Positions 16,688 through 36,190 of a stretch of DNA of 64,000 nt are shown in pieces (the stretch's first letter is position 1; every line of letters starts with the position of its first letter). The stretch lies in assembly GCF_011045215.1 (NCBI RefSeq), contig NZ_CP049201.1, one strand, 5' to 3'. This stretch comes from Escherichia coli. Lineage in GTDB: Bacteria; Pseudomonadota; Gammaproteobacteria; Enterobacterales; Enterobacteriaceae. The notes beneath the pieces are model-generated. The model searched no databases, was not told the DNA's origin, and saw only the letters and a program-made list of their open reading frames with translations. A program made the position numbers and the translations under genes.

Positions 16688-16978
16688 GATTGTGCTCCTT
16701 TTGAAAGATGTCAGTAAAATTAACACACATTGTGAATGTCGTATGTCCGGTGATGCGTTTTTACGACAATAATGCCTACTTGAAATTGTAGATATTTGCA
16801 CTACACCCTTTTAAATAAAGCACCAACAAATCGTCAACTTGCAGAACATATTCTTCTGCCTACATACCATTAAGAAAACATCAAGTTTCCGACTTGCCAA
16901 TTTATTAATGCCCATTATAGACGCTGAAACAAGCCACGGACAAAGAAGATGCCAAAATTACCGGCGATGCAGAAAAAC

Positions 16979-17350
16979 TCAACGAACCAGGGCAAGATTA
17001 CGAAAGCCCGCTCCCGCAAGGACTGACGCCAGATAGTTTCTGTCCATGGCTGCTTTTCGCATCTTACGTCTTAACCCTGCCTTGAATACCTTATCATTCG
17101 TCAAAATATTAATAGCAATGTGCCGTATCCCTGAAAATAATTCTGCAGCATTTCCTCTTCTTATTTTGCAGTCGTCTTCATTCATTACCACGTCCAGACG
17201 CCAGTGCAGCTTATTCTCCACGTGCCAGTGGTTTCGGATTGCTGTGGCGAACTTCTCTGCGGTTAAATCAGCAGAACTGATATAATATCTGACCGTCATT
17301 TCTGGCTCTTTCTTTTGTTCTGCTATTATTGACCGAAAGGAGACTGCCAC
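16979..17350 (-). mobile_element. Truncated H-repeat-associated (ISAs1-family) transposase remnant, C-terminal 123 aa only
   Basis: [30 protein letters not shown] is the conserved C-terminal DDE region of H-rpt/ISAs1 transposases (K-12 ydcC/yncI lie at the equivalent place). The N-terminal two-thirds is missing. Confidence 0.7.
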
Positions 17351-17667
17351 GCATAATTTCTTCAGTCCTTTCCATTCAAACGTGAAATCAATAAGTTCAT
17401 CAGGGACATCGCAAACAATATGAAGACGGATTTCTTCTCTGCCGTGACTAAAATGCGAATTATTTAGTACAAAAAAAGCGGCGCACCTTGTTCTTTCCCA
17501 GATTCCTAATATGGCAACTTTAAGTTATCGCCGTCTATACTTATAGAAATTTCATCAGGGGTGACGTAAATAGAATTTTTTTCATCCTCAATTGCCCATA
17601 ACTGATTAATAAAAAAGTATTTTTTTCATCTAATAAAAAATTATCACATGTAGTAAAATTATTAATA

Positions 17668-18327
17668 TCAAAAAAAATCATCAGCACAATTAATTTTTAA
17701 ATTTAAAAAATAAAGAAAAATATTATTGATTGATTTGAGTGTAAACCACTTGTCATTAACAAATTTATAGCCAGATGATTTTATAAAATAATAATTATCT
17801 CCTGGTATAAAGGCATACATATCATTTAAGGTTATACTCAACAAAAAACTACGACCTGGTTTAATAGTATTCCACCGTTCAGGATTCGTATTAATTTCAA
17901 AAGGACATGAACCACCTAAGTAGTCCAACGTGATATTCCCAGAGTTGATTCTGAATGGTTTTTTGCATATCGCATCATATTCATCTCCTTTTCCATCTTT
18001 TACTTTCATAGGTAGATAATATTTAGAAAAAAAATACGTGGTAGAGCTATTGTTAGTAAAGGTTATGTTAGCAAAAATCCTGTTATTTTTTTTACTCATA
18101 GCTAATTGAGCATTGACATCCGCTATATAATTTATATGATTACATTTTTTCTTACACTCATCATAATTTTCGATAGGATAAATTAATGGCCTTCCTTTGA
18201 TATCTCTCTCAAGCCCAAACCCGTATTTTTTTATTAAAACCATTTCATCCGCAGTCGATTGAAAGGAATAGAAAAATATAATATTTACGATTGTCATTAT
18301 TATGATTTTTTTTATAGCTTGCAGCAT
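17668..18327 (-). CDS. Hypothetical exported protein (219 aa) with N-terminal signal peptide; AT-rich island ORF
   Basis: Hydrophobic N-terminus IIIMTIVNIIFFYSFQSTADE; strongly AT-rich; no family recognised. Confidence 0.45.
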   Translation of the reverse strand: MLQAIKKIIIMTIVNIIFFYSFQSTADEMVLIKKYGFGLERDIKGRPLIYPIENYDECKKKCNHINYIADVNAQLAMSKKNNRIFANITFTNNSSTTYFFSKYYLPMKVKDGKGDEYDAICKKPFRINSGNITLDYLGGSCPFEINTNPERWNTIKPGRSFLLSITLNDMYAFIPGDNYYFIKSSGYKFVNDKWFTLKSINNIFLYFLNLKINCADDFF

Positions 18328-18350
18328 TAATATATTTCTCGACTTATTAG

Positions 18351-18653
18351 TTAATGGAGAAGTGCTTTTTCTAATTCCGCTATTTTTTTCTTAACTGAAT
18401 TGCTTAATATTTCATCATTAATCGAGTCTATCTCACTTTCAATTAATCTTATTTCAAAATATCTTTCTATGTTATATGCATTCTCAAATATTTGATCTTT
18501 TTGTTTAGAGATCAGTTTAGTTGCAATACGGATATGTTCGTCATATGAAACTTCATCCTCTTTGCACGTTGAATATTTATCAGTAGTTGTATAATTCTGT
18601 GACCACATACCACCTTTTTTATTATCCCCATAATACCACTGAATATGAGACAT
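18351..18653 (-). CDS. Hypothetical small protein (100 aa), candidate immunity or accessory protein
   Basis: ATG at 18651-18653 with GGAAAGGA upstream; AT-rich; inside the VgrG island. Confidence 0.4.
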   Translation of the reverse strand: MSHIQWYYGDNKKGGMWSQNYTTTDKYSTCKEDEVSYDEHIRIATKLISKQKDQIFENAYNIERYFEIRLIESEIDSINDEILSNSVKKKIAELEKALLH

Positions 18654-18691
18654 TTCATGACATAAAGTAGCAACATGAGAATCCTTTCCCG

Positions 18692-19141
18692 TTACTGGAT
18701 TTTTTTGCCATCTCTATACTCAAATTTTGCGCCTATGTTAATTATATAGGGCATATCCTTACTTGGGCTGACGAATGCTGCAAATTCATTACAACCTGTA
18801 TAATTTATAAAACTGCTCATTGTTAAATCATTAGCTATAATCATTAATCTTCTCACACCATCCATCATAAGAAATCTAGCATTCATGCGCCTAACTGTAT
18901 TATGTCCATATTTTCTTATATTAACTTCCTTATTTCCTTTAACACCAAAGATCTTACTGAAATCATATTCCTCCTGTGCTCCCCATCTCAAAAGATCATC
19001 TGCTCTTTTTATCAAAACCAACTTTTGTGCCTTACGAACCTTATCAATCATTATTTTAAAATGATCAGTTATTTTTTGCTCTTTCACACATTCTTCTGGC
19101 TCTGGCTTTGGTTGTCCAGAAGTTTGATTATTATCGTCCAT
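18692..19141 (-). CDS. Hypothetical protein (149 aa from the ATG with an RBS; the longest ORF runs to 19198)
   Basis: GGAAGGA then ATG (MDDNNQTSGQ...) at 19141; AT-rich; no recognisable domain. Confidence 0.4.
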   Translation of the reverse strand: MDDNNQTSGQPKPEPEECVKEQKITDHFKIMIDKVRKAQKLVLIKRADDLLRWGAQEEYDFSKIFGVKGNKEVNIRKYGHNTVRRMNARFLMMDGVRRLMIIANDLTMSSFINYTGCNEFAAFVSPSKDMPYIINIGAKFEYRDGKKIQ

Positions 19142-19327
19142 AGTGTCCTTCCATTGAGAGAAAATCATCATTCGCAAATAGCAACTAAAAAGCAGCATTA
19201 CTTGACCTTTCCCTGCATAACAATATTTATAAAATAATACGTTTTATGATCTCACCTTGGGCTCCCAACAAGATAATTTCAGTTTTAAAGACTTTCACGA
19301 AAAAATATAGAAATACCTCACCACCCT

Positions 19328-19618
19328 TCACTTACCAATTAATCTCACAGGAAATCCAACTTCCTTACCACAAATACAATCCCAAGTAACATTTCCCAAA
19401 ATTTTTGATACTTTAGGCTGCAATGGCATTATTGACATTATAAATTTATCAAGTTCTTCGCTATATTTAATTCCCTTTATATTTCTTATTATTGATATTC
19501 TAGCAGTAAAGATAGCCGTCTCTCCATCTACACTAAAAGTGTAATTACAATTTTTTGTAATCTCATCAAATTCAACCGATAACAAATCAATATTATGGTT
19601 TGTAAACACTATGCCCAT
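19328..19618 (-). CDS. Putative cognate immunity protein (96 aa) for the upstream T6SS toxin
   Basis: Start overlaps the toxin stop by 26 nt, a typical toxin-immunity arrangement; small and AT-rich. Confidence 0.5.
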   Translation of the reverse strand: MGIVFTNHNIDLLSVEFDEITKNCNYTFSVDGETAIFTARISIIRNIKGIKYSEELDKFIMSIMPLQPKVSKILGNVTWDCICGKEVGFPVRLIGK

Positions 19619-21032
19619 TCCATACCTCCTTAAATTCCTGTTCAGTCATCAGATATCGACTCCCTTGATATGGATCATATATTATCACATTCCCAGCATC
19701 ATCAACACCCTTAACAAGTACCCAATGTCCTACTTTACTTCCAGAATCCCACATCATTGCTCCCCATGAACCAGTATTACTGAGGGCATATAAACTAGAT
19801 TCGCTCACTGCATTCCCTTCCCAGCCGACATCAAATTTATTAAGCTTGTTTGCCAGCGACGTCATAGATGTTAATTCTGTTCCAATTACATTTTGCGTGA
19901 CAAAAATATACCTATCCCTAAGCAACATTTCCCCACAGGCCGCTCCACAGCCTGTTAAAGTCAATTGCTTTATTACATTTGAATCTAAAACCTCATCAAA
20001 TACTGTCCAATTGCCACCAGCACCACCTTCTAAAACTACCGGCTCTACAAATACTTTCCCAGAGATATTTTCTTCTGGTATTTTTGCGGGTATCATAAAG
20101 CCCCATAAAAAGCTGGAAAAATGCTCCAGAGCAATCTGATCACCATTATTTGCATCCATTATCATTTTTTTAAGTGCATCCCATGCTTGCCCATTTATCA
20201 ATGAATCACTAATATTAAATAAAGCCTGTTCTTTTTCGTTTAAATTTATATTTGCCTGTTCACATAACCCATCTTCGCCTATCGGGCAAGCAACCGTTGC
20301 CGTTGCCGTATCTAACAGAGCATCGAATGTAACTAAGGCTAAATCCGCCACACCATGTAAAGTGGTGATTGCTCCATTCCCCATTTGAGTAAGTGTGTTC
20401 TCTCCAAACCATTCTCTAATTTGAGATTTATCTCCTTCAATACCATTCCTGAGAGATTCTCTGATATTCTTTATTGAAAAAAACTCCCCCCATGATTGGT
20501 CAGGATCTTTTATTTGGAATAAATCATTTTTAACCTCAGGTGAAATATCTCCGTCAAAAATATTACCAACAGAGAGGAGATCCTTCAGAAGCAGTAAATC
20601 GTGTATTACTTCAGCAGTCCTTTCATAATTAAAACTTCTATCAATGACAGAAATCATTGGTGATTTTATTTTGGTATATAATTTACCAAGGCAGTTATGG
20701 TTATTAATCCCAACAACTGAACCATGATAAGCAACAGGTTTCCCTTCTATTGTTACAGTCGGACTTCCCGTTAAAATAACACAGTCACCCGTTCCTTGAG
20801 ATGTACCGGATATGACACCTTTACCGGCATTACTTTGAGTTCCAGCAATCACTGAACCAACATTTAAAGCTCTGCATCCACGCGCCCATACCGTTGAACT
20901 GTACTGTCTTTCACTATCTAAAGTCTGGTAACTGTCAAAAGGAACCTTGTAACCTCCTACTTCACATACATCTGGTGAAGTACACACGACTCTAAATCTA
21001 GATTCACCATCCCCGATATGATAGTTACCCAT
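19593..21032 (-). CDS. T6SS polymorphic toxin: N-terminal PAAR-like (DUF4150-type) domain, C-terminal papain-like cysteine peptidase (C39-like) domain; 479 aa
   Basis: N-terminus VCTSPDVCEVGG...GSPTVTIEGKPVAYHGS resembles PAAR-like spike-capping domains. C-terminus has a CGAAC motif at residues 362-366 and GHWVLV...D...IYDP at 436-453, a Cys/His/Asp arrangement like peptidase C39 folds. Follows vgrG and the DUF2169-like gene. Confidence 0.6.
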   Translation of the reverse strand: MGNYHIGDGESRFRVVCTSPDVCEVGGYKVPFDSYQTLDSERQYSSTVWARGCRALNVGSVIAGTQSNAGKGVISGTSQGTGDCVILTGSPTVTIEGKPVAYHGSVVGINNHNCLGKLYTKIKSPMISVIDRSFNYERTAEVIHDLLLLKDLLSVGNIFDGDISPEVKNDLFQIKDPDQSWGEFFSIKNIRESLRNGIEGDKSQIREWFGENTLTQMGNGAITTLHGVADLALVTFDALLDTATATVACPIGEDGLCEQANINLNEKEQALFNISDSLINGQAWDALKKMIMDANNGDQIALEHFSSFLWGFMIPAKIPEENISGKVFVEPVVLEGGAGGNWTVFDEVLDSNVIKQLTLTGCGAACGEMLLRDRYIFVTQNVIGTELTSMTSLANKLNKFDVGWEGNAVSESSLYALSNTGSWGAMMWDSGSKVGHWVLVKGVDDAGNVIIYDPYQGSRYLMTEQEFKEVWNGHSVYKP

Positions 21033-22071
21033 AATATTTTTTCCCTATACATTCAGGAATAATACAACTCAGCACTCCTTCTTTCATTCCAAAAAAATCA
21101 GGTATTGTTAATCTCCAGGTAAGGTATATTTCCTGTCGACTTAAATCGATAACCATTGTATCCGCAACAGGTAAGAACATATGTGATGTATTATGCTTGG
21201 TTTTTAATATAAGTACAGGTCGTATACCTGGCAATTTTGTCTTAACAACCTGTTCAAATTTAAAAAAACCTTCAAGAGAGATGTTTTCATCGCCAGAGAG
21301 AAACCCCGTGTATATCATATCCGGATGAGCACTATTGTAGAACCGCTCATCAAAATCATCCGGCAAATAGGGATAGCGCTTTTCACGCCATACTTCATTG
21401 TAGGTTCCTGCATACTGGAGGCGACTTTTCCACCATCGAGATACAGGGCCAACACCTTGAAAAAAGTCAGATTCCCCATTAAAAATGGTAGCGTTTTCTG
21501 ACAAAGCAGAGCTGGTTATTTGTGGGAGTTTATATTGACAACTTGTATTAAGTTGGGAAATATCAGGATAATATCCACAACCTACAGGGTTTGCTGAAAA
21601 AACCAATTTCTCCATACCATCTGGTTGCCAAATACCACCGTAAGCAAGCTCATAGCGTAGAGGAATATTAATAATTTTATCTGGTAAGCTCATCTGCCAA
21701 CGATTTCGCTCATATTGTAAGTAGCGGACACCAGATAAACTCAGTTCTTTAGAAAAACTATTAACCCTCACACAAGCCTTCCACTGAGACTTATCCCCTG
21801 AAGGGGCATGAGCACTACCTGTCACGTGAATATCTGTATTTCTTTTACAAAGAACTAAGTCTGTTTCAGATTTTAGACTACTTGTTTCAGGCTCCCCATA
21901 GTATTCATCAGACATGGACAATTCTCTTTGAAATTCAGCAAGATCAGCATAAAATCCATTTTTAATTCGCAATGACATTTTAATAGCAATAACATCAAAC
22001 AAAAGACCATAACGACCATATTTTTCAAATGACAACAAAGGAAATGGCGTGTTATTTTTCATTTCTATCAT
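21025..22071 (-). CDS. DUF2169-like T6SS adaptor/chaperone protein (348 aa)
   Basis: Called mainly by context: lies between vgrG and a PAAR-like toxin, and its stop overlaps the toxin start by 8 nt (translational coupling). Confidence 0.5.
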   Translation of the reverse strand: MIEMKNNTPFPLLSFEKYGRYGLLFDVIAIKMSLRIKNGFYADLAEFQRELSMSDEYYGEPETSSLKSETDLVLCKRNTDIHVTGSAHAPSGDKSQWKACVRVNSFSKELSLSGVRYLQYERNRWQMSLPDKIINIPLRYELAYGGIWQPDGMEKLVFSANPVGCGYYPDISQLNTSCQYKLPQITSSALSENATIFNGESDFFQGVGPVSRWWKSRLQYAGTYNEVWREKRYPYLPDDFDERFYNSAHPDMIYTGFLSGDENISLEGFFKFEQVVKTKLPGIRPVLILKTKHNTSHMFLPVADTMVIDLSRQEIYLTWRLTIPDFFGMKEGVLSCIIPECIGKKYYG

Positions 22072-22177
22072 GCTTATTGATCCCTGAATAAGTCATGCTA
22101 TGATTAATTTAAACAATCACAAATGGTGATTCACAGGCGTATAAAGCAAATACAATCACCATGTTTTATATTCTGCA

Positions 22178-24160
22178 CTATCCGTTCAGATGAATATCTT
22201 TTCCTTTAATATCTACAGGACCGGTAGCCTCAAATAGAAACTCCGTCCCCCGTATTATTATCTTTCCTGTTTTCTCCAGTTTTATGGAACAAGTCCCGCT
22301 CTCTCCCTGCCCACAAATTAGCTCAATACTGTCCCCAGATATGATTTTTGTACCATGCTCAACTTTCAGTTCGTAATTATCACCTATTTTAATACTCTGT
22401 TTTTTGACGACTTCTTCGGTATCAGTTCCCGTCACCTTGCTTGTCTGGTTGTTATTCACAACCTTGTGCCGGTCATTTTTTATCGTGAGATGCTGATCGT
22501 TCGCTACCGTCACTTTCTGGTCATGACCACCTTCCTTTTTGCTCCCCACATTCACCGTCTGGCCCTTCACCACCGTTATCTTCTGGTTGTTACCGATGGT
22601 TTCCGTATGGTCATGTTTCACATCCGTTGTCCGGTCGTTGAGCACCTCCGTATCCATGTTCTTCTGGGCATGGATATACACCTGCTCATTACTGGTGGCG
22701 TCTTCAAACCGTAGCTCGTTAAATCCGCTTCCTTTATAGGTTTTTGACCGGATGGTCATCTGCGTCTTCGTTCCCGGCAGGTCGCCCGGGGAGCGGTTAT
22801 CTTCATGGTAGGTCCGTCCCGTGACGATGGGCTGGTCCGGGTCGCCGTTCAGGAAGTCAACAATCACCTCCTGGCCCACCCGCGGTATCGCCAGGTTACC
22901 GAACCCCGGCCCCGCCCACGCCTGCGATACCCGCACCCAGCATGAACTCGCCTCCGTCATCCCGTGATAACGGTCCCAGTGGAACTTCACCCGTACCCGG
23001 CCATGTTCGTCGCAGAATATCTCCTCACCCTTCGGCCCGGTCACAATGGCACTCTGCGGCCCGTCCACCTTCGGTTTGCTTTGCAGCCGTGGACGCCACG
23101 TCCGGTCTGCCGGTATCACCTCTAACTGATTTCCCAGCGTGGTTCCCCTCCCCTGGCTGCCGTGCAGCGCCTGCGGCTGGCTTCCTGACAGTATGCTCTG
23201 TACCACCTGCCATTCACGGTTCAGCATCTTCTGCGGATGCCCCGTCAGCGTAAACCGCGTTCCCGGCCACAGCTTCGGTGAATTACTCTGCCCTGTGGCC
23301 TTTTCCGCATCACTGCGCAGGCTGTCCATCTGGTACAGCGTGAAATCCTTGCCGTGCTGCTCATCCTTGAACCTTCCCGGATAATCAAATATCTCGTACT
23401 GCGCCAGCTGTCCGTTCAGGTTCTCACCCTGCTGCTCATACATCCCCGGCCAGTCCGGCACCTTAAACGTGTAATCCTGACTCTGCACCGACGACGGGCG
23501 GACATGCGCCTCATAACGGAACGTACTGAGACACTCCGTCTCCGCTCCTGCCGATGTGTCCGGGTTAAACGGAAGCTCTCCCGCCTGTGACAGCCCCGCC
23601 ACATCGTCGCACAGCGTCAGCTTCTGCTCCGGGCTGTCCGCCGCAAACCGCTCAAAGAAGAAAATCCCCTCCTCCGCCCACAGCCGCGCCAGAAACGCCA
23701 GGTCGCTCTCTCCGTACTGGACACAGAACTCCCGCGCCGGATGGTCTTCATAAAACAGCGGCGTCCACTCCGTGACGCCGTTCTCATTCAGTAACGTGGC
23801 CGATATCGTCCGGATATCCTGCTGCTGGAAGATACGGAAGTTCTGCCGCAGCCCGCACCGCCATAACGGCGGCTCAATACGCAGGTGATAACGCATCTGC
23901 CAGCCATTGTTCTCCTGCATGCCAAAACCCGCCACCACGCCGGTGACATAACGCAGCGGGATGACGCCCTGCCAGATGGTCAGCGTCGCCTTCTTCTCCA
24001 GCAGCATCTCCGCCGTCTGCATAAAAGAGTCGCTGGCAACATCCACACTCATCACAAACGGATATGACTGGTTCTGGATTAACCTGAAGCTCACCACTGC
24101 AAAGGTGTCCGGCTCCTGGCCGTCAACCTCCAGCGTAAAGCGCAGACCTTTTAAGGACAT
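22178..24160 (-). CDS. vgrG: Type VI secretion spike protein VgrG (660 aa)
   Basis: N-terminus MSLKGLRFTLEVDGQEPDTFAVVSFRLIQ and central gp27/gp5-like regions (IFDYPGRF, HWDRYHG, VGQEVIVDFLNGDPDQPIVTGRTYH) are hallmark VgrG motifs. The C-terminal third is AT-rich and repetitive. Confidence 0.88.
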   Translation of the reverse strand: MSLKGLRFTLEVDGQEPDTFAVVSFRLIQNQSYPFVMSVDVASDSFMQTAEMLLEKKATLTIWQGVIPLRYVTGVVAGFGMQENNGWQMRYHLRIEPPLWRCGLRQNFRIFQQQDIRTISATLLNENGVTEWTPLFYEDHPAREFCVQYGESDLAFLARLWAEEGIFFFERFAADSPEQKLTLCDDVAGLSQAGELPFNPDTSAGAETECLSTFRYEAHVRPSSVQSQDYTFKVPDWPGMYEQQGENLNGQLAQYEIFDYPGRFKDEQHGKDFTLYQMDSLRSDAEKATGQSNSPKLWPGTRFTLTGHPQKMLNREWQVVQSILSGSQPQALHGSQGRGTTLGNQLEVIPADRTWRPRLQSKPKVDGPQSAIVTGPKGEEIFCDEHGRVRVKFHWDRYHGMTEASSCWVRVSQAWAGPGFGNLAIPRVGQEVIVDFLNGDPDQPIVTGRTYHEDNRSPGDLPGTKTQMTIRSKTYKGSGFNELRFEDATSNEQVYIHAQKNMDTEVLNDRTTDVKHDHTETIGNNQKITVVKGQTVNVGSKKEGGHDQKVTVANDQHLTIKNDRHKVVNNNQTSKVTGTDTEEVVKKQSIKIGDNYELKVEHGTKIISGDSIELICGQGESGTCSIKLEKTGKIIIRGTEFLFEATGPVDIKGKDIHLNG

Positions 24161-24178
24161 AAATACCTCTCAGACATA

Positions 24179-24463
24179 TCAGCCTATATTTACCGTACCG
24201 CCACCAATGACCACGCCGCCGCAGTCAACAGCATCACCGCTTCTGGCGGCGGGCAGGCCGTCAATAAAGACGGTTGAAGAACCTCTGGCGATTTTACGGG
24301 GATGAGGGGGATGCTTCGGTTTAGCATGCGGCGTCAGCGGATCTCCCTGACGGGCTGCGGGGAGACCATCGATAAAAACGGTGGATGACCCGGCGGTGAT
24401 GACGGTCTCGTAATAACCGTCGTGCTGAGTGCCTTTGTCGGTGAGTTTGGCTGCTAAAGGCAT
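24179..24463 (-). CDS. PAAR-repeat protein (T6SS spike tip), 94 aa
   Basis: Two copies of SSTVFIDGLPAAR(Q/S)GD plus an N-terminal AAKLTD motif; 18 nt upstream of vgrG on the same strand. Confidence 0.75.
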   Translation of the reverse strand: MPLAAKLTDKGTQHDGYYETVITAGSSTVFIDGLPAARQGDPLTPHAKPKHPPHPRKIARGSSTVFIDGLPAARSGDAVDCGGVVIGGGTVNIG

Positions 24464-34770: not shown

Positions 34771-35171
34771 TGTAGTGATTTTGCACGCAGCACGTACTGT
34801 CAGAGAAATCAGTGCTCTGACAGTACGCAAGATCTTCTCATACTCTCCAGGTTTACAACATTATCCTTAATATTTACTTCTTTTTGCTGGTATCTACATT
34901 GAAATGAGTAGAAAACATCCCCCTACTGTCGTCTATACAAACAGCTTACTGATTCAAAGGGAATCTTGTTTTCACATTTTTCTATCATGAATACTTTATA
35001 CGCGCGGGAGTCTATAAATGCTTTATACTTTCAAGGAATAACGTAAATATAAAAAGATGGCGTGAAGTATATGCATGGCAGGATGTTTGCAACCTCCTTG
35101 ATGACGCTGCCCCATTGAAATTGCAAACCCCGCCCTGGTTATCTTGCCCATTTATCATGCAAAACAGATAA

Positions 35172-35981
35172 TTATAGGCCTCTGAATACCTCAGAAAGAT
35201 TGAATTTTTTATAGTCCCTCTCTTGAATATTTCCATTTGAAATCAATCGATTCATCTCTTCAACAAAATAATTTATATCATCACACTTGTTATTATCCGG
35301 AAGATCTGAGTAGTTATAATTCCACCATTTTATTCTCAACAGTTCATCAATAACATTTGAATCAAACCTAAATCTGATTATTTTTGCAGGAACTCCTGCA
35401 ACTATGGCATATGGGGGCACATCTTTGGTAACAACGGAATTGGCAGCAATAACAGCACCATCACCTATTACGATGCCACCTTTCAATACAACATCATTTC
35501 CTATCCAGACATCATTTCCTATAATCGGATTTTCAGGTTTGGTAATGAATGGTTTCAATGTCCAGCTACGTTCAAACTCACTCATAGCAAACTTATCAAA
35601 TTCACCGTTATAAGTCATCATGTGAGTAGTAAAACGATTCAAAGGATGATTTCCACCCATTATTTTTACATTTGATGCAATACTACAAAATCGACCTATA
35701 CGTATATTCCCTGAAAAATGACAGGTCGGAAATGAAAAAGCGCCGACACTGGAGAAATTTTTTACAGGCATTGTTGAATATTCTTCAGCAATAACATTAT
35801 CTTCAATTGTTATCTTGTCACCTTTTGAGAAAAGAAATAAATTCCTTTCTTTATAAGACTTCTTCCCCTTATGATTTAAAAAGATTTTATTATCCATACA
35901 AAACTCAAAGTGTTTTTTCGTCCATCTGAAGGTAAGGGTTTTATTTTTATCTTCCGTGAATTTGTACAATTGAACTTTCAT
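35172..35981 (-). CDS. Hexapeptide-repeat xenobiotic acetyltransferase (XAT family; resembles Vat streptogramin A acetyltransferases / CatB); start uncertain (alternative ATGs would give about 241 or 199 aa)
   Basis: C-terminal block IGNDVWIGNDVVLKGGIVIGDGAVIAANSVVTKDVPPYAIVAGVPAKIIRFRFDSNVIDELLRIKWWNY closely parallels the recalled VatD/SatA core; NHPLNRFTTH His region also present; AT-rich gene. Confidence 0.7.
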   Translation of the reverse strand: MKVQLYKFTEDKNKTLTFRWTKKHFEFCMDNKIFLNHKGKKSYKERNLFLFSKGDKITIEDNVIAEEYSTMPVKNFSSVGAFSFPTCHFSGNIRIGRFCSIASNVKIMGGNHPLNRFTTHMMTYNGEFDKFAMSEFERSWTLKPFITKPENPIIGNDVWIGNDVVLKGGIVIGDGAVIAANSVVTKDVPPYAIVAGVPAKIIRFRFDSNVIDELLRIKWWNYNYSDLPDNNKCDDINYFVEEMNRLISNGNIQERDYKKFNLSEVFRGL

Positions 35982-36190
35982 TGTTAATACTTCTACTTAT
36001 AAATTATTAGTTTAATAACAATACTCTAAAGCCTTATGCTAATCAACTGTGACAGGATGAAAAATCGCCATCAAACATTTAGTCTAATTTTTACGCTAGT
36101 TATTAATGTAATCATTCTAATACTTAACCGCCATTAAACTCAGAACCTAAAACGATAGTGGCCGTCCTATAACAGCCACTAACATCTAAC

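Follow-up and report, generated by a model that had tools for sequence, protein, structure and literature searches.

An allele of the type VI secretion effector Cpe1 and its immunity gene in an orphan chromosomal island of Escherichia coli

We analysed a stretch of 64,000 nucleotides of Escherichia coli DNA (the window) that carries an ORF for a 479-amino-acid cysteine protease. Judged by its sequence, this ORF is an allele of the characterised effector Cpe1, also described as TsaP, and the effector-immunity pair that it forms with cpi1 is already known. Its identity was settled by searches of the PDB, the literature and E. coli genomes. With a probability of about 95%, we regard it as a Cpe1 allele, that is, a three-module antibacterial effector belonging to a type VI secretion system (T6SS) and encoded together with cpi1, which would act by the five-step mechanism laid out below. 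The original prediction, made from the bare sequence, had located both the 479-aa ORF and a 96-aa ORF downstream of it. Both exist, on the minus strand, and the smaller one encodes the immunity protein Cpi1. The accompanying view that the C-terminal domain does not correspond to a characterised effector was wrong, since Cpe1/TsaP has a solved structure (9L5U) and known substrates (GyrB and ParE). The features of the gene pair and of the encoded effector are as follows.

19593-21032, minus strand: cpe1 (synonym tsaP), ORF for the 479-aa cysteine protease effector.
20688-20990, minus strand: Tox-PAAR-like (DUF4150) domain, residues 15-115 (Pfam PF13665, E 8.2e-12).
20064-20468, minus strand: helical entry-type domain, residues 189-323, assigned by homology to the cytoplasm-entry domain of StbD-CT.
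20286-20288 and 20262-20264, minus strand: cysteine pair C249/C257 in the helical domain, aligned with StbD-CT C70/C77.
20019-20027, minus strand: predicted self-cleavage site G336-G337/A338 (the slash marks the cut), aligned with StbD-CT G157-G158/A159.
19596-20021, minus strand: C39/papain-fold protease toxin domain, residues 338-479, assigned by identity to 9L5U chain A.
19947-19949, 19725-19727 and 19674-19676, minus strand: catalytic residues C362, H436 and D453, accompanied by the oxyanion residue Q356.
19328-19618, minus strand: cpi1, 96-aa immunity protein, overlapping the 3' end of cpe1 by 26 nt.

In a PDB sequence search, the toxin domain (residues 338-479, 142 residues) was 100% identical to chain A of 9L5U, which is the Cpe1 toxin domain of E. 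coli ATCC 11775. The full-length protein has the same length (479 aa) as Cpe1 of E. coli ATCC 11775 and shares 473 of the 479 residues with it. The six substitutions (window to ATCC 11775: S11C, T18S, S133T, D276N, A294T and S306A) all lie outside the toxin domain, and three of them (D276N, A294T and S306A) fall within the entry domain. The protein is identical to WP_088129690.1 of strain PapM-32-1, and the DNA of the cpe1/cpi1 pair is likewise 100% identical to that of E. coli PapM-32-1. The published residue numbering for Cpe1 (Song 2025) fits the ORF exactly, and the published exosite residues L387, M390, A408, M426, W428 and V434 are all present. The peptide WDALKKMIMDT of the TsaP paper corresponds to residues 284-294 of the window protein, with the A294T polymorphism. 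RefSeq labels the genes in some genomes as "cpe1: cysteine protease effector protein Cpe1" and "cpi1", in identical gene order. A search with the NCBIfam HMMs found no family to match Cpe1, Cpi1 or the DUF2169 protein encoded upstream; the RefSeq naming of cpe1 and cpi1 is presumably not derived from an HMM in the library that we searched. Matches to cpe1/cpi1 were found in 335 of 5,426 complete E. coli genomes, 300 of which contain most of the pair.

By sequence comparison, Cpe1 is a three-module effector, composed of a PAAR-like domain, an entry domain of the type found in contact-dependent inhibition (CDI) toxins, and a C39 protease. The first and the last module had been predicted as a PAAR-like N-terminus and a papain- or C39-like Cys/His/Asp domain, and both assignments hold. 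The N-terminal domain matches PF13665 and contains a weaker match to the Pfam PAAR_motif at residues 81-105. The C-terminal domain matches Peptidase_C39 (PF03412) at residues 352-474, covering model positions 3-124 of 133 with a moderate score (E 1.2e-5, 25.6 bits), in addition to its identity with the crystallised chain. Both Pfam matches are far beyond chance. The CGAAC motif is located at residues 362-366 (nt 19935-19949), exactly as claimed. The His/Asp motif had been placed at residues 436-453; H436 was picked correctly and the Asp of IYDP is D453, but the segment GHWVLVKGVDDAGNVIIYDP is one residue wider on each side (residues 435-454, nt 19671-19730). The choice of C362 and H436 as catalytic residues was also right, and C362A is a published non-toxic mutant (PMC12136450). 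The ordered Gln-Cys-His-Asp set (Q356, C362, H436 and D453) aligns with the corresponding Gln, C183, H258 and D275 of StbD-CT; besides the conserved Q356, the second cysteine C366 of Cpe1 corresponds to StbD-CT C187. With nothing but the letters to go by, the earlier reader had both the architecture and the catalytic residues right.

The region between these two domains had been taken for a linker. It instead holds a third module (about residues 189-323) that is related to a CDI entry domain and is followed by the GG/A site. The relevant homologue is StbD-CT, which together with StbI forms a CdiA-type toxin pair of Citrobacter rodentium DBS100 (PDB 8SSK, 8SSM and 12AJ; Nhan et al. 2026 preprint). 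In the PDB sequence search, the match to StbD-CT (8SSK) spans residues 189-477 of Cpe1 (E 4e-82), and residues 116-335 alone still match 8SSK with an E value of 2.1e-25 (phmmer). As counted from the alignment, the two proteins are 37% identical in the stretch 189-323, while the linker (324-345) and the protease domain reach 59% and 57% identity, respectively. The motif EGGAGGNW is conserved at the Cpe1 linker, and the construct used for 9L5U begins at A338, directly behind the predicted cut. The N-terminal seven-helix domain of StbD-CT is a cytoplasm-entry domain that needs the inner-membrane protein YajC and contains a C70-C77 disulfide (Nhan et al. 2026 preprint). The StbD-CT linker is cut by the toxin itself in cis, only under reducing conditions and after G157-G158, as mapped by mass spectrometry (Nhan et al. 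2026 preprint). The same authors credit Cpe1 with both the processing site and the entry domain, and describe it as the first T6SS effector predicted to take the CDI entry route.

All features needed for the YajC route, namely the homology to the entry domain, the disulfide cysteines and the GG/A site, are conserved in the window. Because all of these StbD-CT features are present, YajC-dependent entry of Cpe1 can be proposed by homology. We lean towards the view that Cpe1 reaches the cytoplasm through a YajC-dependent entry domain borrowed from CDI, rather than by means of the spike, and that reduction-triggered self-cleavage at G336-G337/A338 then frees the protease. This proposal for Cpe1 is already in print (Nhan et al. 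2026 preprint), and the window adds nothing new to it.

The gene pair belongs to an island, further genes of which are listed here.

24179-24463, minus strand: canonical T6SS PAAR protein, 94 aa, first gene of the island (NCBIfam NF033420 T6SS_PAAR_dom, E 1.4e-46, 156.5 bits against a cut-off of 124).
22178-24160, minus strand: VgrG/TssI spike protein, 660 aa (TIGR03361, E 1.4e-180).
21025-22071, minus strand: DUF2169 T6SS accessory/adaptor protein, 348 aa (Pfam PF09937, E 1.7e-72), the stop of which overlaps the start of cpe1 by 8 nt.

The five genes (PAAR, vgrG, DUF2169, cpe1 and cpi1) are all full length and arranged head to tail on the minus strand. Since they follow each other in this way and the last three overlap, they are most likely cotranscribed and translationally coupled. 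The start codon of cpi1 lies inside the effector gene and is preceded by its own Shine-Dalgarno sequence (AAGGAGG just 5' of the ATG). Our scan for promoters and terminators between 17400 and 25000 yielded 35 AT-rich consensus matches, with about 23 expected, and no clear promoter or terminator of the operon. RefSeq names the third protein 'DUF2169 family type VI secretion system accessory protein'; from work on Agrobacterium Tde2 (Bondage et al., PNAS 2016), such proteins are reportedly adaptors that load DUF4150 effectors on VgrG. Compared to their counterparts in ATCC 11775, the DUF2169 protein carries three substitutions and VgrG, which adjoins cpe1 in that strain, 27.

The G+C content of the island is 0.30-0.39, compared to about 0.5 in the flanks. 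Its neighbours are yncG/ansP at one end and, at the other, an ISAs1 remnant with pptA, yddH and nhoA; we take this site to be the rhsE position on the K-12 map. The rest of the window is colinear with PapM-32-1 and consists of ordinary core genes. This location distinguishes the module from that of ATCC 11775, where cpe1 lies at the end of the T6SS-1 core cluster (tssBC, hcp, vgrG, DUF2169, cpe1, cpi1, then yafV). Here, it forms an orphan island between yncG/ansP and pptA/nhoA, with a PAAR gene in front of it and a pair of M35-like genes behind. The three-module layout, the upstream genes for VgrG and DUF2169, the overlapping 96-aa immunity gene, and the catalytic and exosite residues are common to both.

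The adjoining M35-like gene is frameshifted in the window. Its intact version in PapM-32-1 (WP_069913544.1) gives weak Pfam matches to Aspzincin_M35 (E 0.0046) and Peptidase_M91 (E 0.023), and its partner, a downstream protein with a signal peptide, has no Pfam match. The downstream ORFs encode 168, 100 and 219 aa; for these, the PDB sequence searches gave nothing significant and the NCBIfam search gave nothing.

Copies of the island in other strains are eroded. PapM-32-1 has lost the DUF2169 gene and most of vgrG at this site, O145 RM9872 retains a truncated vgrG and a 111-aa C39 fragment, and 2018-05-2CC carries IS600 within vgrG; cpi1 is intact in all three. Of the complete E. coli genomes, a single one matches the 7.1-kb island, used as query, over at least 80% of its length, and the copy in that genome is interrupted by IS600.

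These observations bear on the alternative that survives best, which is compatible with our explanation of the protein function. According to this, the genes are intact but belong to a silent or decaying orphan island, in which cpi1 mainly protects from neighbours armed with Cpe1, and cpe1 takes no part in attack. The copy may be silent, because the island has decayed in other strains and because the reference strain needed a delta-hns background: the published competition assays were performed with ATCC 11775, and measurable activity required delta-hns (PMC12136450). No T6SS core genes are present in the 64-kb window, which points in the same direction, as do the eroded yncG-pptA copies with intact cpi1 and the frameshift in the neighbouring M35-like gene. 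On the other hand, all five module genes are full length with coupled starts, and Cpe1 differs from the active reference by merely six conservative-looking substitutions. We consider a silent island possible, though the less probable state of affairs. The serious caveat concerns the use of this copy, not the identity of the protein.

The effector-immunity pair itself has been characterised by structure and biochemistry. TsaP of the ExPEC strain RS218 is the earlier description of the same protein, identical in kind; there, it was divided into three parts, namely PAAR, middle and C39 (Lu et al. 2023, PMC10434152). The C39 part alone was toxic, and a delta-tsap mutant resembled a delta-clpV mutant, as would be expected for a T6SS effector (PMC10434152). 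The crystal structure of Cpe1tox (9L5U) revealed a papain-like fold with the C39 domains of ComA and LahT as nearest relatives (Song et al., PLoS Biol 2025, PMC12136450). The identical toxin domain is toxic upon expression in the cytoplasm, and the C362A exchange abolished toxicity and reduced the competitive advantage (PMC12136450). Photo-crosslinking and in vitro assays identified GyrB and ParE as substrates, which are cut in their ATPase domains, GyrB at G101/G102 and ParE at G97/G98 (PMC12136450). StbD-CT, studied by the Hayes and Goulding groups, has the same target, and its action leads to loss of supercoiling, unsegregated nucleoids and filamentation.

The immunity protein is equally close to its reference. 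The 96-aa ORF is identical to Cpi1 (9L5U chain C) at 95 of 96 positions, with N76 where the reference has G. This position is four residues from the contact residue K72, and the allele recurs with the same Cpe1 allele in PapM-32-1. The window protein retains each of the contact residues (I47, M61, M64 and K72), and it is homologous to the StbD immunity protein StbI (E 3.2e-9). Cpi1 leaves the active site of Cpe1 open; it occupies a neighbouring hydrophobic exosite and thereby competes with the substrate (PMC12136450).

Taken together, the window ORF as a Cpe1 allele would act in five steps. First, the PAAR-like/DUF4150 domain and the DUF2169 adaptor would mount Cpe1 on the VgrG spike, as suggested by the domains and the gene order and consistent with the published T6SS dependence. 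A T6SS encoded elsewhere in the genome would then fire it into a neighbouring cell, a step for which the domain content and the published work on the reference strain argue. Second, residues 189-323 would use YajC to reach the cytoplasm, like their homologue in StbD-CT. Third, in the reducing cytoplasm, the protease is predicted, again by homology, to cut its own linker after G336-G337 and so release residues 338-479. Fourth, the C362/H436/D453 protease would cut the ATP-binding loop of GyrB (G101/G102) and that of ParE (G97/G98), as shown for the identical domain. As a consequence, gyrase and topoisomerase IV would be inactivated, supercoiling would be lost, chromosome segregation would fail and the cells would filament. 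Fifth, Cpi1 would shield the producer through the hydrophobic exosite beside the open active site, as shown for a protein identical at 95 of 96 positions.

The original prediction had offered two kinds of activity for the C-terminal domain, a protease or a peptidoglycan amidase. The protease stands; the amidase and the periplasmic option do not, since Cpe1 acts in the cytoplasm on type II topoisomerases. Some T6SS effectors with a papain/NlpC-P60 fold are cell-wall amidases. Given such precedents and the merely moderate Pfam C39 match (E 1.2e-5), a periplasmic papain-fold amidase or peptidase attacking peptidoglycan or envelope proteins might be considered. But cytoplasmic expression of the identical domain is toxic, and GyrB and ParE, both cytosolic, are crosslinked to it and cut by it at defined GG sites. 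Moreover, supercoiling is lost through the action of StbD-CT, which depends on an inner-membrane factor for entry, and the Cpi1 sequence contains no signal peptide. The peptidoglycan-amidase reading was rejected on the published substrate data, and we regard it as very improbable. Least probable of all, and hardly credible, is a C39 protease that processes leader peptides as a housekeeping function in the maturation of bacteriocins or microcins, or a membrane-active protein resembling antimicrobial peptides: the closest structural relatives are indeed the peptidase domains of ComA and LahT, and Lu et al. (PMC10434152) derived membrane-active peptides from residues 284-294, but the maturation reading was rejected on gene context, as there is neither a fused or adjacent ABC transporter nor a gene for a GG-leader peptide and the neighbours are genes for PAAR, VgrG, DUF2169 and immunity proteins, while the peptides are engineered cationic variants of the 11-residue stretch and the native toxicity resides in the C39 part and needs C362.

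The C39 domains of ComA (3K8U) and LahT (6MPZ) are fused to ABC transporters and act in housekeeping maturation, cutting after the GG of leader peptides. In contrast, Cpe1 is secreted as a toxin and makes its cut inside the glycine pair of a folded ATPase domain; its sequence similarity to them is low (Pfam E 1.2e-5). StbD-CT is much more similar: both toxins attack the GG motif of GyrB and ParE, and the immunity proteins of both bind an exosite. They differ in delivery, as StbD-CT is delivered, following VENN cleavage, by a CdiA filament, whereas Cpe1 possesses a PAAR-like domain for the T6SS spike. YajC dependence and redox-gated self-cleavage have been demonstrated for StbD-CT and are predicted for Cpe1 by homology.

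The claim of novelty falls, since the literature already covers the protein, its structure, its substrates, the immunity mechanism and the likely role of the middle domain, and the gene has a name in RefSeq. What the window provides is the module in intact form at a second site in the chromosome, where other strains mostly carry eroded versions and have kept cpi1. With three of its six substitutions located in the entry domain, the window allele is a possible natural variant for testing the YajC route. The persistence of cpi1 in the eroded islands fits the general pattern that immunity genes outlive toxins.

By comparison with three loci in other E. coli (L002, L005 and L006), the island carrying cpe1 and its immunity gene cpi1 (16979-24463 of the window) lies at the yncG-pptA position, which is that of rhsE in K-12, and not at the T6SS-1/yafV position of the reference strain ATCC 11775. 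It contains a single vgrG together with two PAAR-type cap proteins, and strain AHB7 shows the same arrangement. The features discussed here are:

24179-24463, stand-alone PAAR protein of 94 aa, one of the two PAAR-type caps
20688-20990, PAAR-like domain of Cpe1, the other PAAR-type cap
17668-19198, minus strand, second gene pair, directly 3' of cpi1
17668-18327, minus strand, 219-aa ORF with a hydrophobic N-terminus, second gene of the pair
16979-17350, minus strand, truncated ISAs1-family (H-repeat) transposase remnant
35172-35981, minus strand, 269-aa hexapeptide-repeat acetyltransferase ORF

The first gene of the second pair encodes an M35-like metallopeptidase, which in the comparison strain PapM-32-1 has 263 aa and the motif HEMSH; its Pfam match to Aspzincin_M35 is weak (E 0.0046). 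In the window this gene is broken into two ORFs (18692-19198 and 18351-18653) by a run of A7 instead of A8 near position 18707. All differences from PapM-32-1 across 17668-19198 are changes in homopolymer length and could therefore be sequencing errors. The hydrophobic N-terminus of the 219-aa ORF looks like a signal peptide. Since T6SS toxins of the M35 type, accompanied by immunity proteins, are known from E. coli PAR and from VgrG2b of P. aeruginosa, the M35-like gene and the 219-aa ORF may represent an orphan effector-immunity pair of this kind. Of 5,426 complete E. coli genomes, more than 500 carry the pair, which is commoner among them than cpe1.

On the pptA side, the island is bordered by the ISAs1-family remnant, as is also seen at Rhs loci. 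The adjoining ∼210 bp (16777-16986) have no counterpart in PapM-32-1. The chromosome of this otherwise colinear strain also lacks a 1.3-kb segment of low G+C content (∼0.34) between yncL and patD (34877-36189), which harbors the acetyltransferase ORF. Among NCBIfam models, its product scores best against those for Vat-type streptogramin and CatB-type chloramphenicol acetyltransferases (E ∼1e-36 to 1e-30); none of these matches comes near the curated cut-off. The segment showed no terminal repeats of the kind found in insertion sequences. Another stretch of low G+C content (0.33-0.38), at about 3000-6000 between yddG and narU, coincides with yddK-like genes for leucine-rich-repeat proteins, one of which is frameshifted in PapM-32-1; a porin gene annotated as ompC adjoins them.

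Elsewhere in E. coli, the yncG-pptA island is variously eroded: one form has a deletion affecting vgrG and the DUF2169 gene, another carries an IS600 insertion, and in a further one only a 111-aa C39 fragment of cpe1 is left. Because cpi1 is intact in all eroded islands compared, these data suggest that the immunity gene is kept after loss of the toxin.
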